Notes under the pieces: model-generated
What the model was told of the DNA's origin: nothing
The model's database searches: none
The model's input: only the letters and a program-made list of their open reading frames with translations
In this document: positions 28,234 through 45,290 of the stretch, one piece after another
How the letters are laid out: every line of letters starts with the position of its first letter
How positions within the stretch are numbered: position 1 is the first letter of the stretch
Origin: Candidatus Poribacteria bacterium
GTDB lineage: Bacteria > Poribacteria > WGA-4E > WGA-3G
DNA: 64,000 bases
Assembly: GCA_963665235.2 (NCBI GenBank)
Contig: CAXXLX010000002.1
Coordinates: forward strand, 224,001 to 288,000
Direction: 5' to 3'
Made by a program: the position numbers and the translations under genes

Positions 28234-28596
28234 TTAGTCATTAGCCCCTTTGAGCCTTTTCAGTAAAGCATTTAGCATCTTCTTTAGACTGATGATTGTA
28301 GCGTCCAAATCGGCATATTGTGCCGCATCTAGGTATTCGAGGTCGTGTGCAAGCAGGATAAGATAGTCCGTTTCACTTGTAGAACCCATTGCTATCTGAA
28401 GAAAACGCTTGAATTCAGCTTCGCTGCCTCTTCCACAACCTTCGGCGATGTTTGTTGGTATCGATGCGCTTGCACGGCGAAGTTGATGCGTCAAGCCATA
28501 TATTTCTGTTCGAGGAAATTGAGTTGTTAGCGCGTAGATTCTTAAAGTTAGCTCATGTGCTTTTTCCCAAACTTGTAGTTGCCTAAAATCCCGCAT
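28234..28596 (-). CDS. Four-helix-bundle protein (23S rRNA IVS protein / Avd-like family)
   Basis: LQVWEKAHEL..FP..E.YGL..QLRRASASIPTNIAEG.GR family signature. Confidence 0.92.
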   Translation of the reverse strand: MRDFRQLQVWEKAHELTLRIYALTTQFPRTEIYGLTHQLRRASASIPTNIAEGCGRGSEAEFKRFLQIAMGSTSETDYLILLAHDLEYLDAAQYADLDATIISLKKMLNALLKRLKGAND

Positions 28597-28654
28597 ATTT
28601 CTTACCTATTTGATTATTGCAAATCTATTGGTAATTGACTATTTGAATCAGTTG

Positions 28655-30218
28655 TTTTCTTGCTAATTGCCATTCGCCATTTGCCATTCGCCATTTCGCA
28701 TTCCCTTCAAACGGGAAAGCACATGTGTCATTGGCTATTAGCTGTTAGCAATTAGCAGTTGGCAAGAGGTTTTGTTGTAACAATCTACCCGTTCCTATCA
28801 TTCCAAGCCAAAGTATCGCGAACTTGGACAGCACACGACTGTTTGCCAGGAGCTTCCTCTTGCTATTCGCCATTTGCCATTTGCCATTTCCCATTCCGTT
28901 CAAACGGGAAAGGACATGTGGTATTGGCAGTTGGCAGTTAGCAATTGGCTATTGGCAAGAGGGGGTGTTGTCACAATCTAACCGTTGTTAGCATTCCAAC
29001 TATAATCGAACCGATACGGAATGTTCGGGACGCAATGTCACAATCTAACCGTTGTTAGCATTCCAAGCCAAAGTAACGCGAACTTTTACAACACACGCCT
29101 GTTTGCTAGGCGCGTTCTCTTGCTATTTGCTAATCGCCATTTGCCATTCGCCATTTCGCATTCCGTTCAAACGGGAAAGGACATGTGGTATTGGCAGTTG
29201 GCAGTTTAGCAATTGGCAAGTTGGCAAGAGGACTCTGACACCTGTCAAAAACTTGCTTAGAAACACAACATCTTGCTATTCACATCTTGGCTATTTCCTA
29301 AAGTGGCTGTTGGAAACTGTTCGCTATTCGCAACCGTGGGCAAGAGGTCTCTGACGCACGTCAAAAACCTGCTTAGAAACACAACATCTTGCTAATCGCC
29401 ATTTGCCATTCGCCATTCGCCATTTCGCATTCCCTTCAAACGGGAAAGCACATGTGTCATTGGCTATTGGCTGTTGGCTATTGGCTGTTGGCAAGAAGGC
29501 TCTGGCGCAGGTCAAAAAATCGCTTAGCATCACAACATCTTGTTGTTGTTCGCCTCTTTGCTCTTTGCTAAAGTGACTGTTGGGAACCGTGGGCAAGAGG
29601 GCTCTGGCGCAGGTCAAAAACCTGCTTAGCATCACAACATCTTGCTAATCGCCATTTGCTAATCGCCATTCGCCATTTCGCATTCCCTTCAAACGGGAAA
29701 GCACATGTGTCATTGGCTATTGGCTGTTGGCTATTGGCTGTTGGCAAGAAGGCTCTGGCGCAGGTCAAAAAATCGCTTAGCATCACAACATCTTGTTGTT
29801 GTTCGCCTCTTTGCTCTTTGCTAAAGTGACTGTTGGGAACCGTGGGCAAGAGGGCTCTGGCGCAGGTCAAAAACCTGCTTAGCATCACAACATCTTGCTA
29901 ATCGCCATTTGCTAATCGCCATTCGCCATTTCGCATTCCCTTCAAACGGGAAAGCACATGTGTCATTGGCTATTGGCTGTTGGCTATTGGCTGTTGGCAA
30001 GAAGGCTCTGGCGCAGGTCAAAAAATCGCTTAGCATCACAACATCTTGTTGTTGTTCGCCTCTTTGCTCTTTGCTAAAGTGACTGTTGGGAACCGTGGGC
30101 AAGAGGGCTCTGGCGCAGGTCAAAAACCTGCTTAGCATCACAACATCTTGCTAATCGCCATTTGCTAATCGCCATTCGCCATTTCGCATTCCCTTCAAAC
30201 GGGAAAGCACATGTGCAC
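28655..30218 (-). repeat. Degenerate array tail: 7 truncated CRISPR repeat cores separated by heptamer-repeat elements
   Basis: Cores ATTCC(C/G)TTCAAACGGGAAAG(C/G)ACATGTG at ~28700, 28893, 29160, 29429, 29682, 29935 and 30188. The last three intervals are 253 bp each. Confidence 0.9.
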
Positions 30219-33200
30219 GTATCATGGCCGGGGGCGAAAGAGGGGGGGAGAAATTTGTTTCAATTCCCTTCAAACGGGAAAGCACATGTGCACGCACTAC
30301 TCCTGGCACTGGTGGTTGCTGCTTCCTGTGTTTCAATTCCCTTCAAACGGGAAAGCACATGTGCACGAAAATGATTACTACTATTTTTTTCACGCTGTTA
30401 AGTTTCAATTCCCTTCAAACGGGAAAGCACATGTGCACGAAGTCATCATCCAGAACGATGTAATCGTCAGTGGTGAGTTTCAATTCCCTTCAAACGGGAA
30501 AGCACATGTGCACCTCAACTTGATTACAATGGTCGCACTGCTGGCAACGTTTCAATTCCCTTCAAACGGGAAAGCACATGTGCACCCTTCGTGAATCCGG
30601 ACTGAAGTTGATCAAGATGCTGGTTTCAATTCCCTTCAAACGGGAAAGCACATGTGCACGAATTACAGATACGGAAATTGCCAAGCGGATTTACAAGTTT
30701 CAATTCCCTTCAAACGGGAAAGCACATGTGCACGAAAGGATAAAGTAATGTTGAATTTAAAAGGAATAACAGTTTCAATTCCCTTCAAACGGGAAAGCAC
30801 ATGTGCACTTGAGATGGCAGAAAAAGGCCTAAAGGATGACATGAGTTTCAATTCCCTTCAAACGGGAAAGCACATGTGCACAAAGCTCAAAAGCAGCTTG
30901 AAAAAGAGCTTGAGGCCCTGGTTTCAATTCCCTTCAAACGGGAAAGCACATGTGCACGCTTGAAAAAGAGCTTGAGGCCCTGATGGCTGAAGAAGGTTTC
31001 AATTCCCTTCAAACGGGAAAGCACATGTGCACGAAGCAACCGTTCTGATCTCAAGAACCAGTACAAAGGTTTCAATTCCCTTCAAACGGGAAAGCACATG
31101 TGCACCGGGATGTGGATACATTTTACGATGTGTTATTAAATAGTGTTTCAATTCCCTTCAAACGGGAAAGCACATGTGCACTCGAGAAAAACGTCGTAAA
31201 GCTGCTTTAGAGGCCGAGTTTCAATTCCCTTCAAACGGGAAAGCACATGTGCACATTTCATAAACCAGGCATGGACCTTCACAGGCACAGCAGTTTCAAT
31301 TCCCTTCAAACGGGAAAGCACATGTGCACTGTTGAAAAAAGCTTTCACAATCGCAACATTAACTGGTTTCAATTCCCTTCAAACGGGAAAGCACATGTGC
31401 ACGAAAAATTGGGTTGTTTGTGTATTTTTGTTTTTTGGGCACGTTTCAATTCCCTTCAAACGGGAAAGCACATGTGCACAAATAGATAAAACAAGGAGGC
31501 GAATTCTGCTTGTTATAGTTTCAATTCCCTTCAAACGGGAAAGCACATGTGCACGAAATTTAAAAATTTGGCTACTTTGGTATTGATTTGTTTCAATTCC
31601 CTTCAAACGGGAAAGCACATGTGCACCGCTTTTGTTTTCGTTTTTGTTTTCGCTTTCGTCAGTTTCAATTCCCTTCAAACGGGAAAGCACATGTGCACTT
31701 GTTTAAGTAGTTTAGAGGTTGGCAAGTCTCAACGGTTTCAATTCCCTTCAAACGGGAAAGCACATGTGCACAACGATGGTTCCCTTGCAAGGAATTATAA
31801 CCGCGAGTTTCAATTCCCTTCAAACGGGAAAGCACATGTGCACAAATCGCGGCACGATGGAGAACAGGTACAAAGATTTAAGTTTCAATTCCCTTCAAAC
31901 GGGAAAGCACATGTGCACAGCTGCTAGATGCCACTGAGGAATTGGCGGAGGCGGGTTTCAATTCCCTTCAAACGGGAAAGCACATGTGCACACTTTCCAA
32001 AATGCTCAGCAGCGAGGAAGTAACGACAAGTTTCAATTCCCTTCAAACGGGAAAGCACATGTGCACTGCTGCAAAATAAGGAGTCAATAAAATGACACGT
32101 AAAGTTTCAATTCCCTTCAAACGGGAAAGCACATGTGCACGAAACGATCTCACGCCCGAGGAATCACTAAAGGCTTTAGAGTTTCAATTCCCTTCAAACG
32201 GGAAAGCACATGTGCACGGTCGGTTCCGCGGCTGCGTTTTTCCTTTACAGGAAGTGTTTCAATTCCCTTCAAACGGGAAAGCACATGTGCACGAGAAGGC
32301 AACGGTTGCCGGACTAAAATCATATCTCCGAGAAGTTTCAATTCCCTTCAAACGGGAAAGCACATGTGCACCTATTGGCTTTCGCTTTCATGGCTTTCGC
32401 AGCTCCCAGTTTCAATTCCCTTCAAACGGGAAAGCACATGTGCACGAAAATTCTTATAGACTGCTCGTCCTATGATTATGATGTTTCAATTCCCTTCAAA
32501 CGGGAAAGCACATGTGCACAAGGGTATTGGATCTCCGCAACGTTGCTAATGAGAGTTTCAATTCCCTTCAAACGGGAAAGCACATGTGCACGCACGAAGC
32601 ACGGAATAATTTCCTCTACGACATGGAGCTCTGTTTCAATTCCCTTCAAACGGGAAAGCACATGTGCACAACAGTTGGTCTATTCGTTGCCTGATTCGTG
32701 GGTTAGTTTCAATTCCCTTCAAACGGGAAAGCACATGTGCACAAACAGGCTTCTCAAAAGTTAGAACAAGAAAAGGAGCTGTTTCAATTCCCTTCAAACG
32801 GGAAAGCACATGTGCACTAGGAGGAGAAGGAGGTGGAGTATAATGGCGTTAATAGCGTTTCAATTCCCTTCAAACGGGAAAGCACATGTGCACCGACAAC
32901 ATGAAGCAGATGGTTGCTTTTTACCGTGACATGTTTCAATTCCCTTCAAACGGGAAAGCACATGTGCACGCTCCTGTATGGACCAGGAAACTGAATCGTT
33001 CTTTCTTGTTTCAATTCCCTTCAAACGGGAAAGCACATGTGCACCAATTAACTAAACTAATGGGGTCTCTGTACCCCGAGGAGTTTCAATTCCCTTCAAA
33101 CGGGAAAGCACATGTGCACGAGGACTTATGTCCAAGTCCAAAACTTATTTCGGCTTGTTTCAATTCCCTTCAAACGGGAAAGCACATGTGCACTGCATCA

Positions 33201-33493
33201 GATCCAATGGTTGGTGAACGTGCAAGTAGATGTTTCAATTCCCTTCAAACGGGAAAGCACATGTGCACCAAGACCCTCAAAAAAGGTTTGGAGGCAAAAG
33301 AAGTTTCAATTCCCTTCAAACGGGAAAGCACATGTGCACGTAACTATAAACTTCATAACGCATATGGCTTTAAGGAGGTTAAGTTTCAATTCCCTTCAAA
33401 CGGGAAAGCACATGTGCACACATTACGAGCGTATGGAGTATACCGACAGGTATATTGTTTCAATTCCCTTCAAACGGGAAAGCACATGTGCAC
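30188..33493 (-). CRISPR. CRISPR array: 44 full 37-bp repeats plus one truncated terminal repeat, 44 spacers of about 34-43 nt
   Basis: Minus-strand repeat GTGCACATGTGCTTTCCCGTTTGAAGGGAATTGAAAC with canonical ATTGAAAC 3' end and a TTCCC/GGGAA stem. Leader faces cas1. Counted by eye. Confidence 0.98.
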
Positions 33494-33790
33494 TTACCCT
33501 ATTTTCGACCCACTCCACGCTTGACTCCGGAACCCCTGATTCAAACGCGAACTGCGCGGGGCTTTTTTTTACTCAAAAATTGGAGCGAAAATCGCCTAAA
33601 CCCTTATGAATACTGACTCAAACGCGATTTTTACCGAAAAACACGAGAGAATTCAGTCACCGTATAGGTTTATGGGCTATTTCATCAAGCGATTCAGCTC
33701 AAGGTCGAATCGCGTTTGTTTTACGTTATTAAGTATACCACAGATTTGCATAAATGTCAAATTTTTTTTGCGATTTTTTTCAAAAAAACG
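33494..33790 (-). promoter_or_regulatory. CRISPR leader with sigma70 promoter
   Basis: Minus strand TTGACA (33760-33755) N17 TATACT (33737-33732); AT-rich. Confidence 0.75.
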
Positions 33791-34062
33791 AAAATTTCGT
33801 AATTTTAGCGGATAAATGCGGAGGGGGGTGGAAGAGGGGAAGGGGGAAGGATGGAAGAGGTCATAACATGCAGTCAGATGGATAGCAATCGTGCGCGTGG
33901 GTGGAAGGATGGAAGAGGGGAAAGGAGGCAAGATGGAAAGATGAAAGAAGCATCCAAAACGACATCGCAGCCGGAGATGCAAAAAAGAAGGGGGAAGGAT
34001 GGAAGAGGAGAGGTGGGGGACAGATGTCCCCCACGTAGCGGGTCTAAAGTTTCACTAAATCT

Positions 34063-35049
34063 CTAAAGGAGAAACGGTTTGTATGCTGGCTCTTCGCCTG
34101 TAATTACGCGTGCCAGATGACGTGCCTGAAGTTCAATACAACGTAGGTAGGTCGTTTTCTCATTTCGTGCGGTGTCTTGGAAGGTCTGTTGCATCCGCCC
34201 GTAATAACCGACGAGAAAACGATCGAGTGCCTCCTTGGTGAATCGGATCCCTTTGGTTGTCTCTTCAAAGTCCTCCGGTTGCACCCGGTTGTTGTTGACG
34301 AGCGATAGCACATAGCCATCTACGATAATCTGTCGGAACTCCTCCATCAGATCGGAGGCTAATGTGGCATGCCCGTGTTTGGGTTGATGAAAATAACCGC
34401 AGTATGGATCGAATCCGACGACGTTGCTGAAGGCATACACGTGGTTGTATAGGAGCGTGTAGCCGAGTGAGAGCATGGCGTTAATCGGATCGGGGGGTGG
34501 TCGAAACTGCCGTGTTGTAAACTTCCAATCGTTTGAGAGAAATTGTCGGAAGGCACGGTAATATGCGGCGGTGCCTGCGCCTTCATATCCGAGCAGGGAT
34601 TCCAAATTTTGCGCTCCCTCAAGATTTTGGAGCGGCTTCTGAATTCCGCTGATGGCGGATTCGATTTCTGCGTTTTGCGTTCGTTGCCGTTTGCAGAAAC
34701 GGATTGCGTTTTTCAGCTTGCCACGCACAAATCCTTTTGCGAGTTCAAGACACTGCTGCGGATCGGCTGCTACGGTGTATTGACGTTGCCGGATGAGGAC
34801 ATCTCTGGCGTAGCCGGGTTGAAGTCTCCCTTTGTATGTGCCCCGTGAAGAGAGGAACGATACGGGAATGCCTTTGTTGAGTAAGTATCCCATCGTTTGT
34901 GTTGTGAGGTGACCGTTGCCGAAGATGATGACTTCGTCTAGTTGCACAATCGGGATTTCCTGAAGCACTTCGCGATTTTTTTTGACGATGACCTGGTTAC
35001 CAGATTTGTGAAGAACAGCTCCCTGTTGTGTGATGTAAAGAATTGCCAT
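34063..35049 (-). CDS. cas1: Cas1
   Basis: LYITQQG, LLGYEG..A..YY, RPPPDPINAMLSLGY, HQP..GH.TLASDLMEEFR. Confidence 0.97.
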   Translation of the reverse strand: MAILYITQQGAVLHKSGNQVIVKKNREVLQEIPIVQLDEVIIFGNGHLTTQTMGYLLNKGIPVSFLSSRGTYKGRLQPGYARDVLIRQRQYTVAADPQQCLELAKGFVRGKLKNAIRFCKRQRTQNAEIESAISGIQKPLQNLEGAQNLESLLGYEGAGTAAYYRAFRQFLSNDWKFTTRQFRPPPDPINAMLSLGYTLLYNHVYAFSNVVGFDPYCGYFHQPKHGHATLASDLMEEFRQIIVDGYVLSLVNNNRVQPEDFEETTKGIRFTKEALDRFLVGYYGRMQQTFQDTARNEKTTYLRCIELQARHLARVITGEEPAYKPFLL

Positions 35050-35081
35050 TTTATGCCTCCTATGGCGCGATTTTTGATATT

Positions 35082-35508
35082 ATACCATTTTTATTAATTA
35101 TTCTATCATTACCGGTTGTTAGAAATGAAACGGAGAACGGAAGACACAAACTATAAGTTTATGCTACTACAAAGACGCACAAACTGGAAGTTTATGCTAC
35201 TACAAAGACGCACAAACTGGAAGTTTATGCTACTACAAAGACGCACAAACTGGAAGTTTATGCTACTACAAAGACGCACAAACTATAAGTTTATGCTACT
35301 ACAAAGACGCACAAACTGGAAGTTTATGCTACTACAAAGACGCACAAACTGGAAGTTTATGCTACTACAAAGACGCACAAACTATAAGTTTATGCTACTA
35401 CAAAGACGCACAAACTGGAAGTTTATGCTACTACAAAGACGCACAAACTGGAAGTTTATGCTACTACAAAGACGCACAAACTGGAAGTTTATGCTACTAC
35501 AAAGACGC
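35082..35508. repeat. MITE family B left end followed by 11 x 33-bp REP tandem
   Basis: ATACCATTTTTATTAATT..GGAAGAC head identical to 61499 and 63466. Unit ACAAACT(GG/AT)AAGTTTATGCTACTACAAAGACGC spans 35146-35508. Confidence 0.9.
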
Positions 35509-35526
35509 AAATTTAACAGGACCATC

Positions 35527-35681
35527 GTAGGGGCGAGGTCGCCTCGCCCGCTAGGTCTGCCTCTAACTCCCATTAGCATAAGGGTTTATCAAAGCACTGC
35601 GTCCATCCTGATTATAGTAGAGCCTGTAATTATTTGGCACACACGGCGGGATCCGCACGGGCTGGGTGACCCAGCCCCTAC
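35527..35681. repeat. Inverted pair of GTAG REP hairpins (REPIN-like)
   Basis: GTAGGGGCGAGGTCGCCTCGCCC ... GGGCTGGGTGACCCAGCCCCTAC. Confidence 0.7.
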
Positions 35682-35714
35682 GAGTGTGTCGTGTGGGATC
35701 CCGGCCGAGTGCCA

Positions 35715-37151
35715 TTAAGCCTTTGTTTTCTGTGTGTCCCGTTTTTTGAAACGGCCGCCAAGCTGCGTAGCAATATTTTTCCCACGCTGGGCGGCATGTT
35801 GCACGGGCCGCGCGACTTGTGCTGCACCCCGTTTTAAGGCGTGTTGTACCTGGTTCTGCAAGATTTTCGCTTGCGAGTCGGGGACAGGTTGGTAACAACC
35901 ATCCTTGTCGAAGACGTGTCCGAGGAATTCTACGCTGTCATCGAAACGTGCGATTTGCGTCTTTTTAGGGTTCAATCCTAACTTGAGTGTCGCCAGCCGT
36001 TTTTGTGTTTGCTGTAGTGCATGTCGTGCGCGGCGTTCATTTCTGGTTAGGATGAGCAGGTCGTCTGCGTATCGCACAAGCCGTATACCTGCCCGCGTCA
36101 TCGCCTTGTCGAAGGGGTGCAGGTAGATGTTGGCTAACAAGGGTGAAAGCGGTGAACCCTGTATAATGCCGATTTTGCGTGGGCGACTCAGACGCTCCTT
36201 GACGATACCGCCCACAGTAGGTGCGGCAAGTGTTGCTACGACAAGCGGTGCAGCGAAGAGTAGGTGTTTTGCCGTGAGCCCCATCCATATCCGTTTTGAA
36301 TTTGCAAGGAGTAGTAATACCCCGTCTCGTCCTAAGTTTATTAATGCCTCCTTATTTGCATGAGACCAGAGTCCGTTATCTTTTACACGTTCCAGTTCGT
36401 CAATTTCCCAGGAATCTTCGGGCGGTATGGGTTGCATATCGCCGTATTCATCGGCATAATAGACGTTTTCAGGTGGTGTGCTAAGTCCTGAGCCGCGTTG
36501 CAGGATTTGGCTCATGACCCGTTCGACCCCCGCGCCTAAGCAGTGGGCGGTGTTTTCAATATGGGTGCTCCATGTCGGAAGCTTGGGCGGTTGTAAGATG
36601 CCTCCCATATCCAGCCACATCTGAATGAGGCGTAAGATTGCTGGCTCTTTCAGTGATGCCCGCAGAAAACGCATGAGAATTTGTGTGTCCATTCTGTCAA
36701 AGAAGTTCTCAATGTCCGCGTGAACGACCCATTCGTATCCCTCCGCTCGGATGGCGTTTACCTGGGCAACTGCATGGGGTACGCCGCGATTGGGACGGTA
36801 TGCGAAGCTGCACTCCAGGAATTTTGCCTCGTAAATCGGGGTGATGAGGTCGCAAACGGCACGTTGAACAATCCGATCTTTTAATGTCAGCACAGCGAGT
36901 TCGCGTGGGGTGCCGTTTGACTTCTTAATGATGAACTTCCGAAGTGGAAGCGGGTAATACCGTTCTTCAGCCAGCTCACGCGAGAGTTGACGGAGATGTT
37001 TCGCAAGGTTCGCCTCAAACTGTTGAATGGTAACGCCATCGCTACCGGGCCCTCCTTTGTTGCTTCGCACTTTTCGCCACGCGGCATGTAGGGTTTCGGG
37101 TTGACAGAGTTGTGTTGTGAGTGAATTATTTGGTGATGTGTAATCAAACAT
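35715..37151 (-). CDS. CRISPR-associated group II intron-like reverse transcriptase (stand-alone, with internal insertion)
   Basis: AWRKVRSNKGGPGSDG, RELAV..DRIVQ, SFAYRP, ADIENFFD, QGSPLSPLLANIYL, RYADD, FLG; lies between cas2 and cas1. Confidence 0.93.
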   Translation of the reverse strand: MFDYTSPNNSLTTQLCQPETLHAAWRKVRSNKGGPGSDGVTIQQFEANLAKHLRQLSRELAEERYYPLPLRKFIIKKSNGTPRELAVLTLKDRIVQRAVCDLITPIYEAKFLECSFAYRPNRGVPHAVAQVNAIRAEGYEWVVHADIENFFDRMDTQILMRFLRASLKEPAILRLIQMWLDMGGILQPPKLPTWSTHIENTAHCLGAGVERVMSQILQRGSGLSTPPENVYYADEYGDMQPIPPEDSWEIDELERVKDNGLWSHANKEALINLGRDGVLLLLANSKRIWMGLTAKHLLFAAPLVVATLAAPTVGGIVKERLSRPRKIGIIQGSPLSPLLANIYLHPFDKAMTRAGIRLVRYADDLLILTRNERRARHALQQTQKRLATLKLGLNPKKTQIARFDDSVEFLGHVFDKDGCYQPVPDSQAKILQNQVQHALKRGAAQVARPVQHAAQRGKNIATQLGGRFKKRDTQKTKA

Positions 37152-37264
37152 TTAGAATTCTCCTTTTAGGTGGGTTAAACGATTTGTAGCACAAACCTTT
37201 AGTTTGCGTCTTTTGATGCACAAACTAAATGAAGTTTAAATAACGTGATTTTGAAAAGAAGTTT

Positions 37265-37680
37265 CTTTAGTCCCGTAGGGACGATATCTTTATAGAAGCA
37301 GACGTTCCCCCCCCCCATTCTTAGTCCCATAGGGACGATATCTTTATAGAAGCAGACGTTTCCGCCCCAACTCTTAGTCCCAGTATTCGGGCAAGCAGCC
37401 CGCTCTTTAAGGACGATATCTTTATAGGGGTTAGTGCAAACCGACATTTATTATCAAGCTCACGTTATAATTACTTGGACACTTTTACAATATTGGAAAC
37501 TATCAGCAGCAAAGTCGTGCTCGGAAGATTGTTCTTACGGAAGAAAATCGTGTTGAAACCGATTGTATAGAGTCTGCAAGCAGTGAAAAGGATAGTAAAA
37601 TTTTTCAGATTTTACCGATCAACCGATTGTATAGAGTCTGCAAGCAATGAAAAGGATAGTAAAATTTTTCAGATTTTTTT
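37265..37680. repeat. Short repeat cluster upstream of the RT
   Basis: CTTAGTCCC(G/A)TAGGGACGATATCTTTATAG-like unit x3 (related copies at ~61215-61300) and a ~60-bp direct duplication at 37557/37621. Confidence 0.75.
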
Positions 37681-37830
37681 TGAGGAGGGGGGATATATAG
37701 TAGACTTTAGAATTAATCGGACATTATGTTCGGACACAAGCATTCGGTGTTGATCGGATGCCTATGCTGTAGCACAAACTGGAAGTATGTGGCCGCATCC
37801 GCACAAACTGGAAGTATGTGCTACAATCTG

Positions 37831-39288
37831 CTACGGTGTGCTGAGCCCTGCATCAATTATCTGCAGCAATAACCGCTTACGGGTATGTTGTTCTCGGAGG
37901 TCTGCGAAATAAACACGCCACTGCTCTTCTTGACCAAGGTGCTGATAGAGTGCCCTTAATTCTATTAAATATGCCGAAACTTTCTCGTAAGCTTCACGTT
38001 TTCGGAAAAGCGCGGTCTGTTCAATAAGACTTTGATAGAGCAAAATGGCGGTATCGGGATAGTGTTGACCAAGAAGTGTGAGCAGCCGTTCGGTGAAATC
38101 TGGGATACGTTTGACAATTGGGCCCTGCAAAAGGGACGCGTATTCGGCAACGGATAGGGGGAATTCTTCAACTGCTTTCCATGCTGCATCGTCGCGCTGC
38201 TGTGTGAACAGCGCGTGTATCAACCGATACCCCTCCTTTTCACGTAGGGCAAGCTGGAGGTAATCTTCAGTTCGCTCATCGCGAAAATATAGGGCAAGTA
38301 AAAGTTGAACGTGTGCCTGTCGCTCGGGGCTTTCATCGAGACGTTGTTCAATTGTTGTGTGTAAATCTGATGGATTTTGCATTGCACAGAGCTGTTCAAG
38401 GTGGTGTGTGAGGATAGGTGTGAATACCGGTGCTGCTTCAAAACTGAGTGACAGCAGCAGGCGGCAGTGTTCAGACAAGGTCTCAGGTGTAGCCCCGGTG
38501 TTTTTGAAACCTACTGACATCGGCTCTTGCGTGTTGAGGACAATGCGCGTGAACTGCTTTGTGCATTTTTTAACAAATCGGGGCAATTCATTCCGCTGGA
38601 GCGTGTCAGGATAATGCACAATTGATTGGTGTATGAGAGCATGGAGGAGGGCGAGCGCGAATTCCGTTTCGCCTACCTGTGCAAGTGATTCGGCATGCAT
38701 GAGGAGCTCTTCAAGTTGAGCTAACACCTGTTGAAGTTGATGTTGTTCCAGAAAGCTGTCTCCAAAAATGGTGTTGAGCTGTTCTCGGTAAGCCGTAACG
38801 AGTGGAATCGGGTCAGTTTGAGGGGGTGTATCCGGAATATCTGTCCATCCCTGCACTACACGTGCCAATGCTGGCCTTCGCTTGAGCATCTCCATAATGA
38901 TGTGCAAAAGCTGTTCCTTCGGTTTTTTCGCAAGCGTAGCAAGCAGGGTGTCGACAGAACAGAGCACCTCCGGCGCGTGAATGTAGGTCAACAGCAGTGC
39001 GACGATATGCTTACAATCTCCTTCACCGCCGTAAGGACATGAACAGGACGCGGCGGCAATCCCTGTGGGTATCAATTCCACAGACACCTTATACGGTTTC
39101 GGATATGTCCCGCGGCATGTTGCTGACAACGTATAGCCGTGGAGTACCGGGTTGCCAATTGCGCCATCGTGGAAGTATTCCAGGCCGCGTGTGAAACTCC
39201 GTTCTGTGCAGCGGTGTTTTATCTGAGCGTAGGTAAGGTGAGGACTTTGCATATCAAACCACGATTGTCTTGGGCTCTGATGTGACAT
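37831..39288 (-). CDS. SWIM zinc-finger domain protein with helical C-terminus
   Basis: SFTRGLEYF, CSCPYGGEGDCKHIVALLL (CxC..CxH); overlaps the cas2 3' end. Confidence 0.85.
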   Translation of the reverse strand: MSHQSPRQSWFDMQSPHLTYAQIKHRCTERSFTRGLEYFHDGAIGNPVLHGYTLSATCRGTYPKPYKVSVELIPTGIAAASCSCPYGGEGDCKHIVALLLTYIHAPEVLCSVDTLLATLAKKPKEQLLHIIMEMLKRRPALARVVQGWTDIPDTPPQTDPIPLVTAYREQLNTIFGDSFLEQHQLQQVLAQLEELLMHAESLAQVGETEFALALLHALIHQSIVHYPDTLQRNELPRFVKKCTKQFTRIVLNTQEPMSVGFKNTGATPETLSEHCRLLLSLSFEAAPVFTPILTHHLEQLCAMQNPSDLHTTIEQRLDESPERQAHVQLLLALYFRDERTEDYLQLALREKEGYRLIHALFTQQRDDAAWKAVEEFPLSVAEYASLLQGPIVKRIPDFTERLLTLLGQHYPDTAILLYQSLIEQTALFRKREAYEKVSAYLIELRALYQHLGQEEQWRVYFADLREQHTRKRLLLQIIDAGLSTP

Positions 39289-39529
39289 CCCCCACAGCAG
39301 GCACTTCGACCCGTCCTACACAAGCATTACAGAGTGCATAGTAGCGAACTGAATCCTTATCAGGGTCTATGATGTTCACAACGGCGCGTTTCATTTGATC
39401 AAATTGGGAATGGGTGAGATGCGCTTCAAAGACGCTGTACTGGACGCGGGTGCCGAACCCTTTGAGTGTTTTGGCGAGTTGGGTGCGCCGCTGGTCGTCC
39501 GGAATGTCGTAAGAGATTACATAGAACAC
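39254..39529 (-). CDS. cas2: Cas2
   Basis: YVISYDIPDD.RR, GTRVQYSVFE, DSVRYY. GTG start after a GGAGG RBS. Confidence 0.95.
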   Translation of the reverse strand: MFYVISYDIPDDQRRTQLAKTLKGFGTRVQYSVFEAHLTHSQFDQMKRAVVNIIDPDKDSVRYYALCNACVGRVEVPAVGDVTSEPKTIVV

Positions 39530-39610
39530 CGAATTTATCCTCCGTAGTAGCACAAACTTCCTAGTTTATGGCATGTAGCACAAGCTTCCTAGTTTGTGAC
39601 ATAAGGAGAC

Positions 39611-40579
39611 CTAAGGAAACACCCCGACGATGTGGTACTGTCCATATCCGAATGCTGTATGATGCCCGATATGTAGATATTTGCCGAGAACGATTAGCGG
39701 AAGGAAGGGTTTTATGTCCCCCTCAAAACGAATCTTGCCTCTGAATCCACTCATCGGAACTGATGTCTCCTGCCGATAAGAATATCTATCTCGCGGTAAC
39801 CACTGCAAACCGGAGGTATGCCTGACACCGCTGGCTTCCTTGATTAGGGCGGGTGCGTCTACGTCCAAATCCTCGCCGCAGTGACATAAACTCAAGAAAC
39901 GGATACGCCGGAGCAGGTTGCGGATGAGATGTTCAAACGTCAGATTGCTTGTCCAGCGTCCGTTGACCTTTATGCTGGTGGGGGTGAGAAAATCAAGTTC
40001 AAGTTCATCTGTAATGTGAGGTGCAACTCGTCCCACGTCATCAAGTCCGAGCAGGAGTCCATCGTCTGTCAGCATCTGATCCGTTGCGGTGTAGATTGTG
40101 TGACCCGGCTCTTCATCGGACGCGGGTAGGCTTTCGACTGTTTCCAGTAAACACCGCCCGCGCTGGTCTTTAAGTCCGATTCGTTGGATGCCCATCCTGT
40201 GGAAGGTAAATACCATCCATGGGAGTACCGCTATCGCCTCTCCGATGAGGATCAGATTACACTTGAAGGTGTCGCCTGGAGCGTATCGGACTTTGCCGGT
40301 ACGGGGTGGTTCAAGTACGAACGGATGTGGTGCGTACGTCTGTCCTCGGAGGACAGGACTGTCCTGCGGCACTGGCGTTTCAAAGCATCTGGAGTAGACG
40401 CATTGGTCCGGAAAGTGACACTGGTTTTCGCACTGCTGTTCGGTGCCGATGCAGACGGTGTGCCGGAGGACGTATCCAAATCTGCCTCTGAAGATGTTGC
40501 CTTTGTAGGCTGGCATCTTCAGGGGCTCTTGGACGGTGTATGTGAAGCGGTAACGCGCGAAGCGGAAGTTTTTGAGCAT
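39611..40579 (-). CDS. cas6: Cas6 crRNA processing endoribonuclease
   Basis: FRGRFG, PHPFVLEP, FLTPT, G-rich loop HIGHHTAFGYG. Start inferred at MLKNF (the ORF track starts at 40678). Confidence 0.88.
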   Translation of the reverse strand: MLKNFRFARYRFTYTVQEPLKMPAYKGNIFRGRFGYVLRHTVCIGTEQQCENQCHFPDQCVYSRCFETPVPQDSPVLRGQTYAPHPFVLEPPRTGKVRYAPGDTFKCNLILIGEAIAVLPWMVFTFHRMGIQRIGLKDQRGRCLLETVESLPASDEEPGHTIYTATDQMLTDDGLLLGLDDVGRVAPHITDELELDFLTPTSIKVNGRWTSNLTFEHLIRNLLRRIRFLSLCHCGEDLDVDAPALIKEASGVRHTSGLQWLPRDRYSYRQETSVPMSGFRGKIRFEGDIKPFLPLIVLGKYLHIGHHTAFGYGQYHIVGVFP

Positions 40580-40595
40580 GGGGGTTGTTGGTTCA

Positions 40596-41336
40596 TTACG
40601 CATCAGCGTTAGTCTTGGTTGCTTCAGCATCCGCATCCGAGTTAGGACATGTTGTTTCCGCGGGTTCCGACTCTGCACAAAGTAGGTCAGTAGACGGTAT
40701 TAAGGGCGTTTTGTCTGATTTGCGTACGAGTGCCACAAGGGCAGCATCAACAATACCTGCTAAATGGTATTTGGGGTCATAGTCTACTACTTGTTTGAGT
40801 TCTAGCCGTAGGGGCAAGTTCTTTTCTGCCAATTTTACATCCTTCAACGGTGGTATCCAGATTTCTGCTCCTCGGTCTTCTCGCAATTTTACCCAGCGTG
40901 TCTGTGTGCATTTAACGTCGGTACCCCACAAGGCGTGGTATTCTGTTAGAGCCTCTCTCTTTTTCCGAGACTTTTCTGGATTGTCCTGATCGTTTTCATT
41001 ACAACCGATCCAAACGTGCTTTTCGTCTTCGACATCAAATTCCAGCAGGCGTGCATAATGTTTGCCATCCCAATCTCGCCAGACGTGCCATTCGCCTTTC
41101 TCACCGAAAAGACGGAGATCGCTCACCAGTTCCCAATCCGGTTTCCATTTTGATTCTTTTTCCGATTCTGATTCTTTATATGGGGGCCAGCAGATGTCGT
41201 TTGGGGATACTACGCCAAAGCCGATAAACCCTGGTTCTTGCACCAAAACCCATGCTAAATCTTTTTCGGTAACATTGGACAGATGGCCACAAACCCATGA
41301 TTCATTGAGTTCTTCTATATGCGTTTTATTCGGCAT
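40596..41336 (-). CDS. csx19: Csx19 (TIGR03984-like) type III-D subunit
   Basis: DLRLFGEKGEWHVWR and LWGT motifs plus operon position. Start inferred at MPNKTH. Confidence 0.75.
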   Translation of the reverse strand: MPNKTHIEELNESWVCGHLSNVTEKDLAWVLVQEPGFIGFGVVSPNDICWPPYKESESEKESKWKPDWELVSDLRLFGEKGEWHVWRDWDGKHYARLLEFDVEDEKHVWIGCNENDQDNPEKSRKKREALTEYHALWGTDVKCTQTRWVKLREDRGAEIWIPPLKDVKLAEKNLPLRLELKQVVDYDPKYHLAGIVDAALVALVRKSDKTPLIPSTDLLCAESEPAETTCPNSDADAEATKTNADA

Positions 41337-42840
41337 CGGAATCCTCCTTGTCATTCTTCTTAGGTCGCCGTGATCCTTTAGGACGATCGGTATAGCTCTG
41401 CGCTGCATCGACACAGCATTGGAGAAAACCGGCATCACCATTTTCAACCGTCATGCGTTTGTCTTCGTCTTTTTTCAATTTCCATTCCCTTGTATTAGAT
41501 GGATCGGGGTCATCTTTATATATCAATTTTGCTGCGATACCTCGGAGTGTGCCGCGTCCGTTGCTTGTCTCCCCACCGAGAGCGGCATGTCCATACCAGA
41601 AATCCCGCAATGTCAACAGCAGTAAACCGATCTCCGCGTCGCCCGGTTCCTCCAACGTGAGTATTAACCGAAGATTGGATGCCGATTCTTTTTCAGCGAT
41701 TTCATCGAGACTAATCGGATAAACAGGCTTTTCGTTAAATAGGGCACCATCCAAGCTGCCACCAGTAAAGCGATCGATAGCAACACGATCTTGCCACTGA
41801 TATCGCACATTTTTCACTAGCTGCTCCTCAATCCTAACTCGACTTGCACGCGCATCCGGTTCCTGGTTCTTATCACCTTTTTCATAGACGTAACCAAACA
41901 TTTTGTCAACTGATTTCTCTGACCAACCAATAGTTTTCGCGATTAAGGTAGCACGATGGCGGAATGCACCGCCAAAGGAAGTTCCAGGAACAACGGGCTC
42001 TCCATCGGACTGTAGGTGTATCATGTCTGGGTCATCTGGATTTCCAGAGGAACTACGGATTAGCAGGGAGGTACACAGCTCAAAGTTAGCTTCAATACGG
42101 AAGTATCGTCGGTAATCGGATGGCAATGAGCGTATTTCTAAAGAGCTCGGGTCTCGAGACCAAGGATCGTCTCGGAGCCATGACATGACATCCTCCGGGT
42201 TGTTCATTTGCAAATCGCGTATTTGCCAAGTGCCTACTTTACCGCAACCATAACCGCGACGGGTGCGCGCACCTAATCGGATATTCCCATCCTGAAATCC
42301 GTGCAGAAGTGCCAAAAACAGTGCTGTTAAATCATAGTTCTTGTCCCCTTCACGAATCACACATTCCAGATTCAGTTCAAACTCGGTACCACGTTCAACA
42401 ACTTCTACATCAAACTTTGCTTTGTCCGCAGCGGATCCTGATTGTTTGTCCACGCGGACACCGTCTCGAGTTGATGTCGTCGCTTGCATACAGTGAGCAT
42501 CAGCAACTGTCAGAGCACTCATCGGGTCGGACTTCTCCACGGTATCTGCTTTTTCTGACCCACCGAAAAATCTTTTGAATTCTGATGATTCTTTGGTATG
42601 TCCTCCTTGATATTGCTTCCACGGTAAACTCTGGTGAGCGAGAAAGCTCCGTGCAGCACCAGTAATGGAGGCCCCAGGGATAAAAGGTTTCCCGGCTTCA
42701 TCCCTCAAGAGACACATATCTGCTATTCCAGTTTCGTCGCCGCCAAAGTGTGCTACACTCTCTAGTTTCCATGTCCCACGCGCATATAAGCGGCGGACAA
42801 CAGCATCATCCATAGGTTTTATGGTTGTTGTATTTGCCAT
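41326..42840 (-). CDS. cas7: Cas7-Cas7 (Csm3-like double RAMP)
   Basis: Two RAMP units: IPGASITG..LGARTRRGYG and VPGTSFGG..IDRFTGG..LGGETSNGRG. Confidence 0.88.
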   Translation of the reverse strand: MANTTTIKPMDDAVVRRLYARGTWKLESVAHFGGDETGIADMCLLRDEAGKPFIPGASITGAARSFLAHQSLPWKQYQGGHTKESSEFKRFFGGSEKADTVEKSDPMSALTVADAHCMQATTSTRDGVRVDKQSGSAADKAKFDVEVVERGTEFELNLECVIREGDKNYDLTALFLALLHGFQDGNIRLGARTRRGYGCGKVGTWQIRDLQMNNPEDVMSWLRDDPWSRDPSSLEIRSLPSDYRRYFRIEANFELCTSLLIRSSSGNPDDPDMIHLQSDGEPVVPGTSFGGAFRHRATLIAKTIGWSEKSVDKMFGYVYEKGDKNQEPDARASRVRIEEQLVKNVRYQWQDRVAIDRFTGGSLDGALFNEKPVYPISLDEIAEKESASNLRLILTLEEPGDAEIGLLLLTLRDFWYGHAALGGETSNGRGTLRGIAAKLIYKDDPDPSNTREWKLKKDEDKRMTVENGDAGFLQCCVDAAQSYTDRPKGSRRPKKNDKEDSDAE

Positions 42841-42875: not shown

Positions 42876-45290
42876 CTATGTTCGTCGCTTACGGTAGAGC
42901 GAGGTTAGCAAATGATTGAGGAATACTTGGCACATTTCCTTACTGTCTCCCTTCAGTTCATCAATCAGGGTTTTTCGCGTGTTTGCATAACTTTCATCAA
43001 CGTCGTCTTCAACGAGTGCTTCTATCTGAGTCCGAATTAATGATTCAGTTAGGGTCTCAGGGGCACTCCAAGCTATCTTGAATAAATCATACAATGTTGT
43101 ACTTCTTGGAAACCACGGCATACCGGATCGAAGGGTTATTCGACAATTCGTCAAACCTTCCTTCGCTTGCCTACGTAGGTCGTTCAGAGTATCAATGGGG
43201 ACATCTTGTTGCAAAAAGAAACGTAGTCTCCCGAGGAGCGCGTTGCTTGGGATTTCTTGTATGGCACCACGGATAGTCGCTATGTTCATCGCTCCCTGCT
43301 GCATTTCTGCCAAACAGCGGGTTCGAGCGATCTCTTTAAGAAGGGCTTGAACACACGCGGGTATCTCTGATCCCCCGGGGACAGGGGGACTATCTTGATT
43401 GTTGGGATCGTCAAGCTGTGTTTCCATTGTATTTGTCAATTTAAAGCGATTGATCGCAATGCGCCCATAGCCTTCACCTTTACGCAGCCCTAAACCATCA
43501 TATTCCAATTCCACCAGACGTTTTTTGTCTATTTCTTTAAGTTCTTGCTTTAATTCAAACACAAAAACACTACCAGCAGCTATAGCGGGCCACTGCTGTC
43601 GGGGCAGACGCAAGTGGGCGTTATAACCACCAACTAATTCCGTACGGGTATAGCTGCGTAAAAGTTTCAAATCGTCCGCATTCAAAGATAGCAATTTTGC
43701 CAATTCCTGTTTGGGGAAACATGAATCTGGATGTCCATTGTCATTGACAACCAGTAACTGAGATAACGTGGTAACAATTAAGCAATTGCCAAGATTAGGA
43801 ACACTATGTCCCAGTTGTCCAATAAATCCATCCCACTCAACACACCCCTTCAATTGTTGGGGCCCCTTAGCATCGACCCATTCAAATGCTGCCTCGCCGT
43901 ACTGTGCACTGCGAGACCGCCCAAGTCTTATTAGGTTTGTCCCTTTCAACCACTTTTGCAAGTCTTTCAAGTCCGACTCTGAACCCAGGACCACTCCTTG
44001 AAATGTTTCGCCTGTCTGGATGGCTTCATATTGAAAGAAGGCTCCGCCAGCTGAAACGTCTGCCCCAAGGGCACGGCCTATGCGGCGATCTTTTGAAACC
44101 CGGGCATGATGATAATTTCGTTCTGTTCTAACCGATTGACTCTCCACGACACCTTTGTCTAGTTTAGCATAGCGACGCTCAAGACGTTTTTTAGGTCTTT
44201 TCTTTGAGTCCTCGTCCTGTGCTTCCACCAAATCTACTAGCGTTAACATTCTGCTGTCCTTGAATTGACGTATGGAATGCGGAATAGGAAGTAGACGTTG
44301 TATGGAATCATGGGCTTCAGGGTAAGCTGTCAGGAACCGTAATTTACCCTCAAGAAATACATTGCGAAACGCTTGATCATCCGGTGTGTGATTCGGCTGA
44401 TGGAGATAGTGCCAAGCAGCAGCCCCCCATACATTGCTACCCGGGATGTCTTGCCGAGTCACAACAGTATTTGAATCTCCTTCTGTCGCTGGAATAACGA
44501 CTGGTGCTGTCAAAGTCAACCGATATCGCAACAAATGTGTGGGAATGCCGCTATGTGAAAGAGAAGTATTGGATGTCTGCTTTCTTGATGTTTTGGGCGA
44601 CTGGCTCACCATGATGGATGGAAGCGAATTTTGGTTCAAAACTTTTTCTGTCAAGTCGCACTCTTGGTTACTCCCGTCACTTTCAATCAGACGACAACAG
44701 ACCTTTCCGAGTCCACGGGTACGTGCAGTGCCCATGTATTGTAAGGCAGCAGCACTGATAGCTAAGGCATTAAGCAATTCTTTATCAGGATGCAGAGTAA
44801 ACTGCACCGGTGCTCGAAATACCAACCCCGGTCGGAGAGTACGGGTAAGACGAAGTGTGTCCTCTTGTGCTACGCCGGTCTGGCGATCTATGGCGGTTTG
44901 GGCGCGCACAGTAGAAAAGTGTTGCACGACATCCTCGCGGAGAATTTTCCGGATATTCTGATGTTGCAGATATTCCAGCCAGGGTTTCAAAGACGATGCT
45001 TCTACCAATTCAGCGTTTCCTACATACAAAGCAACCTCTCTGTCACCAGGGCTTTTTCCGGACTCGCCAAAAATCTTCGATGCTGGCGTAGAAGTCTGGT
45101 AACACGCTCCCCAAGCATCCGTAACATCACGATAGGCCTCACGCCACAAGCCTTTCAGCCTTCTACCAGGGAGAATTGGTAAGCCCAAGTCGTCAGAGGC
45201 TATGTCGCGGTCAACTAAGCCAACACGTCCCTCGCCAGATGCCGATGTTAATGGTGATTGCAATGTAATTTGCAAGACATAATTCATCAT
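42876..45290 (-). CDS. csx10: Csx10-like Cas7-Cas5 fusion with helical C-terminus (possible Cas11)
   Basis: GLPILPGRRLKG, MGTARTRGLG, IPGSNVWG, LGRSRSAQYG and GLGLRKGEGYG motifs. Confidence 0.85.
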   Translation of the reverse strand: MMNYVLQITLQSPLTSASGEGRVGLVDRDIASDDLGLPILPGRRLKGLWREAYRDVTDAWGACYQTSTPASKIFGESGKSPGDREVALYVGNAELVEASSLKPWLEYLQHQNIRKILREDVVQHFSTVRAQTAIDRQTGVAQEDTLRLTRTLRPGLVFRAPVQFTLHPDKELLNALAISAAALQYMGTARTRGLGKVCCRLIESDGSNQECDLTEKVLNQNSLPSIMVSQSPKTSRKQTSNTSLSHSGIPTHLLRYRLTLTAPVVIPATEGDSNTVVTRQDIPGSNVWGAAAWHYLHQPNHTPDDQAFRNVFLEGKLRFLTAYPEAHDSIQRLLPIPHSIRQFKDSRMLTLVDLVEAQDEDSKKRPKKRLERRYAKLDKGVVESQSVRTERNYHHARVSKDRRIGRALGADVSAGGAFFQYEAIQTGETFQGVVLGSESDLKDLQKWLKGTNLIRLGRSRSAQYGEAAFEWVDAKGPQQLKGCVEWDGFIGQLGHSVPNLGNCLIVTTLSQLLVVNDNGHPDSCFPKQELAKLLSLNADDLKLLRSYTRTELVGGYNAHLRLPRQQWPAIAAGSVFVFELKQELKEIDKKRLVELEYDGLGLRKGEGYGRIAINRFKLTNTMETQLDDPNNQDSPPVPGGSEIPACVQALLKEIARTRCLAEMQQGAMNIATIRGAIQEIPSNALLGRLRFFLQQDVPIDTLNDLRRQAKEGLTNCRITLRSGMPWFPRSTTLYDLFKIAWSAPETLTESLIRTQIEALVEDDVDESYANTRKTLIDELKGDSKEMCQVFLNHLLTSLYRKRRT

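Follow-up and report, generated by a model that had tools for sequence, protein, structure and literature searches.

A SWIM zinc-finger protein encoded between cas2 and an unfused reverse transcriptase in a type III-D CRISPR-Cas adaptation operon of Candidatus Poribacteria: a possible Cas2-coupled adaptor

The closest described counterparts of the locus considered here are the RT-Cas1 and Cas6-RT-Cas1 modules of Marinomonas, Vibrio vulnificus and Thiomicrospira, in which a group-II-intron-like reverse transcriptase (RT) with a YADD motif stands beside cas1 and cas2 in a type III locus. An unfused RT adjoining cas1 is also a known arrangement, which Silas et al. (2017) suggested to predate the fusion. 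SWIM-domain proteins have been met in similar company. A cluster of them appears among the adaptation-linked genes of Altae-Tran et al. (2023; Fig. 6B legend and Table S3), and in retron type XIII (Mestre 2020) a SWIM protein, with HEAT/ARM-repeat partners, is encoded beside a bacterial RT. A further parallel is offered by ZSWIM8 (PDB 9rwz), a cullin-RING ligase substrate receptor that reads AGO2-miRNA-target complexes, the SWIM domain of which is described as structural, organising the assembly, and the helical domain as reading the nucleoprotein complex (PMC13083262).

The window analysed here, a stretch of 64,000 nt from a sponge-symbiont-type Candidatus Poribacteria bacterium, contains a type III-D CRISPR-Cas locus with an adaptation operon in the order cas6-cas2-SWIM-RT-cas1-leader-array, all five genes of which lie on the minus strand (Table 1). 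The effector module precedes the operon and has the features by which type III-D is recognised, namely a Cas10 cyclase palm, Csx10, Csx19 and multiple or fused Cas7 proteins; no HD motif was found in the short Cas10. The array was oriented on the minus strand, since the reverse complement of its repeat terminates in ATTGAAAC, which we take to be typical of type III repeats. Because of this repeat end, and because the sole degenerate repeat forms the far end of the array at 30182, the leader was placed between cas1 and the array. No protospacers for the spacers were found in the genome itself or in the INPHARED phages. The window is a defence island, in which a PARIS-like AriA/AriB pair adjoins the CRISPR locus.

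Table 1. Features of the type III-D locus, with coordinates as positions in the window
Feature	Position	Strand	Basis and remarks
CRISPR array	30182..33493	-	44 identical 37-nt repeats and 1 degenerate repeat; 44 spacers of 34-43 nt
Leader (inferred)	33494..34062	-	Region between cas1 and array
cas1	34063..35049	-	328 aa; Pfam Cas_Cas1 E 8.4e-94; NCBIfam TIGR00287 E 7.6e-93
Unfused CRISPR-type RT	35715..37151	-	478 aa; RVT_1 E 2.3e-35, in two stretches; YADD at residue 361
SWIM zinc-finger/alpha-solenoid gene	37831..39252	-	473 aa from likely start Met13; PF04434
cas2	39254..39553	-	99 aa from GTG; Pfam CRISPR_Cas2 E 9.9e-25; TIGR01573
cas6	39611..40678	-	Pfam CRISPR_Cas6 E 1.5e-17
csx19	40596..41447	-	NCBIfam Csx19 above cut-off; PADLOC Csx19
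Double Cas7/Csx7	41326..42840	-	NCBIfam Csx7 above cut-off
Cas7-Csx10 fusion	42876..45290	-	NCBIfam Csx10, below cut-off
Short Cas10	45287..46933	-	PADLOC Cas10d 1.4e-107; GGDD at residue 323
CARF-PD-(D/E)XK (Csx1-like) effector	46952..48082	-	PADLOC Csx1 9.5e-51 and CARF_PDDEXK
RRM_1-Cas7 fusion	48082..50499	-	Pfam RRM_1 1.5e-14 and RAMPs; PADLOC Csm3/Cas7_IIId 8.4e-84

An earlier note on this DNA had described a co-oriented cas2-SWIM-RT-cas1 arrangement with an intact, unfused YADD RT, and in this it was right. Its sequence marks the RT as a CRISPR RT of the group-II-intron-like kind, encoded on its own and with the YADD site intact. It has the fingers/palm and YxDD of CRISPR-associated RTs, is encoded in an adaptation module beside cas1 and cas2, and matches the PADLOC models 'RT' (2.5e-97) and Cas1_IIIb, which is of the RT-Cas1 type (1.7e-60). 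Its best sequence match in the PDB is the group II intron RT GsI-IIC (E 3.9e-44), and the Cas6-RT-Cas1 protein 7kft is matched in the same search at E 1.6e-33; as in the Cas6-RT-Cas1 modules, cas6 belongs to the same operon. Unlike the RT-Cas1 fusions, the RT is a separate protein, its reading frame lying 665 bp from that of cas1, and it carries an insertion of ~135 aa between the RT blocks (residues ~185-320). By homology to RT-Cas1 systems, the RT most likely lets Cas1-Cas2 acquire spacers from RNA.

Again unlike the RT-Cas1 modules, the operon has a SWIM/solenoid gene between cas2 and the RT. Its longest reading frame (37831-39288, 485 aa) does overlap cas2 by 35 nt, as the earlier note had it; however, database homologues of the protein begin at Met13 and two related loci have stop codons in the upstream extension, at query positions 2 and 10, so that the start is probably the ATG at 39252, 12 codons further on. 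This ATG abuts cas2 as TGAtATG, one base behind the cas2 stop codon (39256-39254). Whichever start is right, cas2 and the SWIM gene are tightly coupled. For cas2 itself, the alternative start at 39529 adopted in the earlier note is also possible.

The SWIM zinc finger is recognised by PF04434 at 28.3 bits, against a gathering cut-off of 19.6, and its CxCx7CxH motif, CSCPYGGEGDCKH, occupies residues 82-94 in the numbering of the 485-aa frame. The zinc ligands C82, C84, C92 and H94 show no variation across 137 sequences and are among the 96 columns that are invariant in a 30-sequence alignment. The AF2 model (pLDDT 93.5, pTM 0.84) consists of the SWIM module followed by the solenoid, the former basic (pI 8.8) and the latter acidic (pI 5.6). 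No enzymatic motif was found in the protein, which is predicted to be non-enzymatic. The gene is under purifying selection, with dN/dS values of 0.21-0.34 in the 12 closest pairs as against 0.06-0.14 for cas1, and is the fastest-evolving of the module, at 2-3 times the rate of cas1 or the RT. Membership of two described groups was considered. In retron type XIII a winged helix and a DEDE motif precede the SWIM finger, which is C-terminal (Mestre 2020), whereas the finger of the window protein is N-terminal, and the PADLOC model SWIM_XIII has no match to the protein at E<=0.01. Pfam DUF6880 matches only the C-terminal 70 residues, scoring 16.7 bits where the cut-off is 27.3.

The SWIM family is present in 54 of 176 genomes of the phylum, and related loci were compared from 40 of the 53 SWIM-positive genomes other than that of the window. 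An intact, full-length SWIM gene occurs in 26 of these 40 loci, that is, in 26 genomes, and in every one of them (26/26) it is immediately preceded by a co-oriented cas2. The link between the SWIM gene and adaptation genes that the earlier note suspected is thus borne out by the neighbourhood survey. The cas2 and SWIM matches touch or overlap in 21 cases and are separated by 160-597 bp in the other 5; downstream, a co-oriented RT is present at full length in 16 of the 26 and as remnants in 2 more. The pair has stayed intact through inversions of cas1 or cas6 (L039, L041 and L042), SWIM fragments outside the 40-locus set also adjoin cas2 (genomes G078, G099 and G145), and cas2 is upstream in all three of the close metagenome relatives (L072-L074). 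Elsewhere in the related loci, Cas1 is 78-83% identical to that of the window and cas6 is in most cases upstream of cas2. Since the cas2-SWIM-RT-cas1 arrangement recurs in other genomes of the phylum, it is not a matter of chance. The synteny may nevertheless stem from one ancestral insertion, and the 26 loci are therefore not independent.

The reading that we favour, tentatively and at somewhat less than even confidence, is that the SWIM protein is an optional, Cas2-coupled scaffold or adaptor in a type III-D adaptation operon whose RT probably enables RNA-derived spacers. The gene would have been inserted directly behind cas2 within the phylum, its translation probably being coupled to that of cas2. 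The docking site of the solenoid could then be Cas2, Cas1-Cas2 or the basic RT, and the SWIM module could organise the assembly or hold nucleic acid, such that the protein would tune or gate spacer uptake without being required for it. A SWIM match is absent from 8 of the 33 genomes that have an RT of this type; in G021 (L152) the order is cas6-cas2-RT-cas1, with just ~390 bp separating cas2 and the RT, and no SWIM remnant was found between these two genes there or in L153 (G092), L154 (G077) and L155 (G144). Moreover, one G091 locus (L157) has cas6-cas2-cas1 without either SWIM or RT. Since SWIM-less cas2-RT-cas1 modules exist, SWIM is dispensable for the module. Association with cas genes outside the phylum-wide arrangement also counts for an adaptor, because it recurs in two distant relatives, one adjoining cas6-cas1-cas2-cas4 in a clade different from that of the Poribacteria copies (L136) and one following cas6 on a long branch whose placement in the tree is unsure (L148), and because the SWIM cluster of Altae-Tran et al. 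(2023) is likewise statistically tied to adaptation genes. The representative of that cluster is a 558-aa protein from a metagenome contig, which may be a member of the same family.

That the protein is instead an autonomous defence-island sensor or adaptor of the PDC-S62 kind, merely co-expressed in the cas operon and acting outside spacer uptake, is somewhat unlikely, and it is in the wider family that this explanation finds its ground. By profile comparison, the Poribacteria protein belongs, in shortened form, to a widespread ~590-aa family that occurs in defence neighbourhoods, the homology running the full length over SWIM module and C-terminal helical domain alike (hhalign of alignment A1 against A4: probability 100, E 5.4e-71, residues 1-482, one deletion of ~115 aa). 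The Poribacteria form lacks those ~115 aa of helical repeats, makes up its own long-branched clade and is fixed behind cas2, whereas other members, which in part overlap Pfam DUF6880, are mostly not cas-linked. Cas genes adjoin only 2 of 77 distant metagenome relatives, 42 of the 77 stretches being at least 5 kb long, and in 21 loci with scanned neighbours Wadjet jetABC is found five times, an SNF2 helicase once and a STAND NTPase fusion once. A PADLOC candidate label denotes a putative single-gene anti-phage system, and the candidate PDC-S62 matches the window protein at residues 16-141 only (E 2.2e-14) and, in the distant relatives L100 and L114, both ends of the protein; a literature search for 'PDC-S62' found nothing.

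Stand-alone copies point the same way. Ten genomes of one genus hold a copy of 329-334 aa with a common end residue, in three unrelated genomic contexts and under purifying selection, with dN/dS values of 0.10-0.46; no cas genes were found within 7 kb of them, except for fragments in L066, and no match to a cas2 or RT of the module type was found in the ten genomes. In a quick tree, these short copies nest within the cas-linked clade. To them may be added, in favour of an independent defence gene, the SWIM-less modules and the defence island, with its PARIS-like AriA/AriB, in which the locus lies. Against it, a free-rider would be expected at varied places within a locus, whereas a full-length copy lies away from cas2 in none of the 26 cases, 21 abut or overlap cas2 and the pair survives rearrangements; the independent recurrence of cas association in L136 and L148 also tells against it. 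The earlier note's interpretation is partly supported. It has the cas2 linkage on its side, but its proposal of a new accessory factor is weakened by the SWIM-less modules, the selected stand-alone copies, the mostly cas-free surroundings of the wider family and the SWIM-adaptation association already given in Altae-Tran et al. (2023); the idea of a factor dedicated to adaptation is weakened by the first two and by the distant relatives beside Wadjet, SNF2 and STAND genes.

It is distinctly improbable that the protein is a regulator which binds DNA or RNA through its basic module and controls cas expression, or couples interference to adaptation, outside the integrase complex. The pI of 8.8 of the N-terminal part would suit such a role, as would the DNA and protein binding with which SWIM domains are credited (Mestre 2020), and in several relatives the gene points away from jetA or cas6, a divergent layout common among regulators. 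In the present locus and its kin, however, the gene is internal to the operon and not divergent from it, Pfam and NCBIfam gave no match to a helix-turn-helix or any other known DNA-binding family, and in ZSWIM8 the SWIM domain is structural (PMC13083262). Finally, a decaying or spurious frame without function, for which broken copies in 4 of the 40 loci (L062, L069, L070 and L071) and the fastest evolution in the module might be cited, can be set aside, since it is contradicted by the dN/dS values and the 96 invariant columns with the zinc ligands among them, and the fold is confidently predicted and 298 homologues at E<=0.001 were found among 8000 candidates scored.

As regards the Cas2-coupled adaptor, the fold also counts for it and allows a more specific version. 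ZSWIM8 is the only specific relative of the protein in the PDB (profile E 1.7e-5), Foldseek with the AF2 model gives it E 6.2e-7 as against 1e-3 for generic TPR proteins, and VIA gives Z 12.4 over residues 1-473 (334 residues aligned, rmsd 14.8 Å). Both have a SWIM module and then a helical domain, in the manner of the ZSWIM8-type receptors. Yet the global TM-score is only 0.2, with 14-16% identity; ZSWIM8 is also much the larger protein, equipped with BC and cullin boxes, and the match begins at residue 109-131 of its chain, past most of the BC/cullin box (residues 71-111). The protein is not placed among the ZSWIM8-type cullin-RING receptors and no ubiquitin system is implied; the resemblance points to a scaffold or sensor, and not to a common pathway. 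As a long shot, the protein may be a bacterial counterpart of ZSWIM8-type sensors turned Cas2-bound subunit, which would sense a nucleoprotein state, such as an RT engaged with its RNA template or cDNA, or a type III effector bound to its target, and pass the substrate to Cas1-Cas2.

The selection and delivery of RNA-derived prespacers by RT-assisted modules are poorly understood, especially where the RT is unfused to Cas1. In this regard, a conserved and apparently non-enzymatic gene that separates cas2 from the RT across the phylum makes a concrete candidate for the missing adaptor, and the natural variants with and without SWIM, and with and without RT, provide ready-made comparisons. The finding would be more ordinary if SWIM turned out to act as a defence gene in its own right. 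Of interest, too, is the kinship with a large and uncharacterised SWIM family beside Wadjet, SNF2 and STAND genes, with its likeness to ZSWIM8. If the sensor reading were true, a type III system would gain a selective, interference-coupled route to RNA-derived spacers, and the family would serve Wadjet, SNF2 and STAND defence systems as a general plug-in sensor.

The window contains a single long defence locus on its minus strand, listed in its upstream-to-downstream order in the table below, and all the elements of the cas2-SWIM-RT-cas1 arrangement described in the earlier note are present within it; this anatomy is solid. The effector genes are assigned to type III-D by family models, with an RRM_1-Cas7 fusion gene at the head of their operon, and the CRISPR locus is immediately preceded by a PARIS-like pair. 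The locus is flanked by two CARF effector genes, of which the CARF-HEPN gene gives a Csx1/Csm6-like match (E 1.2e-86) and has homologues adjoining cas6 in several related loci. Unlike GGDD, an HD motif was not found in the window Cas10, and the combination of two CARF effectors with a Cas10 of this kind fits cyclic-oligoadenylate signalling.

Features of the defence locus and its flanks, in upstream-to-downstream order
Feature	Position	Strand	Remarks
AriA-like ATPase	51424-52737	-	PARIS-like pair
AriB-like DUF4435/TOPRIM	50558-51427	-	PARIS-like pair
RRM_1-Cas7 fusion	48082-50499	-	805-aa Cas7/Csm3-like; N-terminal RNA recognition motif RRM_1, E 1.5e-14
CARF-PD-(D/E)XK gene	46952-48082	-	
Short Cas10	45287-46933	-	GGDD present
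Cas7-Csx10 fusion	42876-45290	-	
Double Cas7	41326-42840	-	
csx19	40596-41447	-	
cas6	39611-40678	-	
28-nt unit	39547-39602		x2
cas2	39254-39553	-	
SWIM gene	37831-39252 (or to 39288)	-	
RT	35715-37151	-	
33-nt unit	35145-35509		x11
cas1	34063-35049	-	
Putative leader	between cas1 and array		~570 bp; inferred
CRISPR array	30182-33493		44 identical 37-nt repeats and 1 degenerate at the far end; 44 spacers of 34-43 nt
253-bp unit	29332-30215		x3.5, 98% identity
23S rRNA intervening-sequence protein gene	28234-28596	-	PF05635, E 7.6e-40
CARF-HEPN gene	26890-28044	-	

The array shares the reading direction of the cas genes, because the reverse complement of its repeat has the 3' end ATTGAAAC, an end typical of type III systems, and because the degenerate repeat lies at the end distal to cas1. 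Against the organism's own genome the spacers gave only matches of chance length (14-20 nt), and against the INPHARED phages they gave none; an Rfam scan of positions 28000-40000 at E<=0.1 gave no match. Just past the old end of the array is a tandem 253-bp unit, in each copy of which the CRISPR repeat is represented by its 3' two-thirds; the whole resembles a trailer or degenerate-repeat segment that has been duplicated. Also beyond the array is a gene for a 23S rRNA intervening-sequence protein (IVP), for which the other Poribacteria loci fetched gave no homologue. The 33-nt unit between RT and cas1 (8 further genome copies) and the 28-nt unit between cas6 and cas2 (29 further genome matches) are genome-wide short repeats and do not belong to the adaptation module. 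Two open reading frames, of 200 aa on the plus strand (35116-35718, built of the tandem 33-nt unit) and of 82 aa (37199-37447, tandem repeats), have no family match and were rejected as genes.

The reverse transcriptase is intact, as had been claimed, with 478 aa and YADD at residue 361. It matches the PADLOC RT model at 2.5e-97 and the RT-Cas1 model at 1.7e-60, and the PDB sequences that it matches are those of group II intron RTs (4e-44) and of Cas6-RT-Cas1 (1.6e-33); judged from sequence, it is an RT of the CRISPR kind, with an insertion of ~135 aa between its two matched RT blocks. Separate RT and cas1 genes are an arrangement described by Silas 2017, and literature abstracts record the uptake of RNA-derived spacers by RT-Cas1 fusions. 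In this regard, it is reasonable to suppose that the window module would also acquire spacers from RNA.

The SWIM gene had been said to overlap cas2 by 35 nt. This holds for the 485-aa open frame, but translation probably starts at the ATG at 39252, one base past the cas2 stop: predicted homologues start at Met13 of that frame, and the extension upstream of it is interrupted in two related loci by stop codons at query positions 2 and 10. The SWIM finger is the sole Pfam match of the protein, and an NCBIfam scan gave none. Of 1.84 billion representatives scanned with HMMER, 2520 are relatives at E<=1e-3, but the number falls to 48 at E<=1e-30, with just one other full-length representative among these 48. 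The family is thus large, and the cas-linked form makes up a narrow clade within it. Profile-profile comparison with 34 relatives of ~590 aa gives a match over the whole length (probability 100, E 5.4e-71), from which the Poribacteria form differs by a single deletion of helices of ~115 aa. The PADLOC candidate model PDC-S62 matches both the window protein (2.2e-14) and its distant relatives, and an ESM Atlas search with one homologue (P0011) found only SWIM clusters of ~570-600 aa.

An AlphaFold2 model from a 137-sequence alignment (pLDDT 93.5, pTM 0.84) has two helices, four strands and a zinc knuckle, then further helices, then a long alpha-solenoid; an earlier model, for which 30 close sequences were used, had a poor N-terminal part (pLDDT 72), and fold searches with it found generic repeat proteins only. 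In the 137-sequence alignment only the zinc ligands and one glycine are invariant, with no catalytic-looking invariant residue evident. The N-terminal part of the protein is basic, as are Cas1, Cas2 and RT, and the solenoid is acidic. ZSWIM8, a substrate receptor of a cullin-RING ligase, is the sole specific solved relative, the remaining matches being generic repeat proteins; in the account of PMC13083262, its dimeric assembly is organised by the SWIM domain and its helical domain senses an AGO2-miRNA-target complex. A transposase-derived (MULE-like) origin was rejected, there being no Pfam transposase domain and the remainder of the protein being solenoid.

The earlier note had proposed a survey of the family for linkage to cas2 and RT, and among the intact full-length copies fetched from the phylum the linkage to cas2 is complete. 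The named homologues, and the single locus from a contig scan with a one-protein query, belong to Candidatus Poribacteria. Among 176 phylum genomes, SWIM matches occur in 54 (E<=1e-10), window-type cas2 in 45 (E<=1e-20) and window-type RT in 33 (E<=1e-60). Some 15 kb around the SWIM match was fetched from 40 of the 53 other positive genomes, the omitted 13 offering nothing beyond fragments, weak matches or pieces at contig edges, with cas2 beside the fragment in three (G078, G099, G145). When sorted by tblastn with the ten Cas proteins of the window, these 40 loci (numbered with L) comprise 26 with an intact full-length SWIM gene, 4 broken ones (L062, L069, L070, L071) and 10 with a short stand-alone copy. 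In 26/26 intact loci cas2 is directly upstream on the same strand, the two matches abutting or overlapping in 21 and separated by 160-597 bp in 5. What follows SWIM is more variable: a full-length same-strand RT in 16 of the 26, RT remnants in two (L041, L045), no RT within the fetched stretch in six and a contig end in two. Moreover, 8 of the 33 RT-positive genomes gave no SWIM match; L152 has cas6-cas2-RT-cas1 with ~390 bp from cas2 to RT, in L153, L154 and L155 the two genes are separated by 1.2-5.7 kb and a search at E<=1e-3 found no remnant of SWIM, and L157 has cas6-cas2-cas1 with neither accessory. Thus, SWIM and RT are accessories of cas1-cas2 that vary independently of one another.

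Six related loci carry an opposite-strand open frame of ~550 aa between SWIM (or cas2) and RT (L036:5299-6975, L037:4451-6085, L049:8557-10194, L052:2316-4073, L071:8441-10153, L155:7431-9107). Absent from the window, this frame matches PF00282, the pyridoxal-dependent decarboxylase domain, at E 1e-12 to 4e-17, and is an odd, recurrent insert within an adaptation operon.

Across the 12 closest pairs among 14 loci holding all four genes, dN/dS is 0.21-0.34 for SWIM, 0.06-0.14 for cas1, 0.07-0.13 for RT, 0.08-0.37 for cas2 and 0.09-0.17 for cas6. In other words, the SWIM gene is functional, yet under weaker constraint than its neighbours. Adjacent genes of one locus pair differ several-fold in dS (L048/L051, L058/L068 and other pairs), as in L048 versus L051 with 1.10 in cas2 and 0.25 in SWIM, which suggests that recombination shuffles parts of the adaptation module.

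The ten short copies, all from one genus (L054, L055, L056, L060, L061, L063-L067), are the strongest evidence that SWIM can function without adaptation genes. They lack the last ~130 residues, occupy three different genomic contexts with unrelated neighbours and no cas genes, and their genomes are absent from the phylum cas2 and RT matches. A quick maximum-likelihood tree, built from 43 chosen rows, places them within a group of cas-linked copies from the same order (support 99). That they are pseudogenes or relics is ruled out by their conserved stop and by selection: the open frames, of 329-334 aa, all end at the same acidic tail, and dN/dS across their 45 pairs is 0.10-0.46, with most values at 0.2-0.3.

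Outside the phylum the linkage to cas genes mostly does not hold. A metagenome scan with the family alignment confirmed 191 relatives, of which 80 were kept; three are close, each with cas2 upstream, but cas genes stand beside only 2 of the 77 distant ones (42 stretches of >=5 kb). One, L136, has cas6-cas1-cas2-cas4 divergent from SWIM, and the other, L148, has cas6, then SWIM, then a 23S rRNA IVP gene. Pfam searches on 68 neighbouring proteins from 21 loci found Wadjet jetA divergent from SWIM in five (L090, L092, L095, L098, L100), with jetB and jetC also in L095 and L100, an SNF2 helicase downstream in one and a fusion of SWIM module and STAND NTPase in one; neighbours in the remaining loci are unrelated. 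The Wadjet-adjacent copies of ~585 aa form their own clade in the quick tree, where L136 groups with the SNF2 and STAND forms, distant from the Poribacteria clade; linkage to cas genes thus has more than one origin. Viral contigs scanned with the family alignment yielded a single marginal match, confined to the SWIM motif, and thus hold essentially no members of the family.

In the literature, nothing was found on a cas2-SWIM-RT-cas1 module or on RT-CRISPR of Poribacteria beyond a listing in Altae-Tran 2023, whose Fig. 6B legend and Table S3 place SWIM, and also the 23S rRNA IVP, among new adaptation-linked genes; the SWIM gene listed there may belong to the family of the window SWIM. Retron type XIII, as given by Mestre 2020, pairs its RT with a different SWIM protein. 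As to function, that SWIM is a regulator seems improbable. That it is an autonomous defence or sensor gene, acting outside spacer uptake, is lent some weight by its dispensability, by its short stand-alone form and by the other contexts of the family, and is somewhat unlikely. Because its place behind cas2 is fixed, we tentatively prefer to regard SWIM as a putative Cas2-coupled scaffold or adaptor, an optional part of the adaptation module of these Poribacteria.
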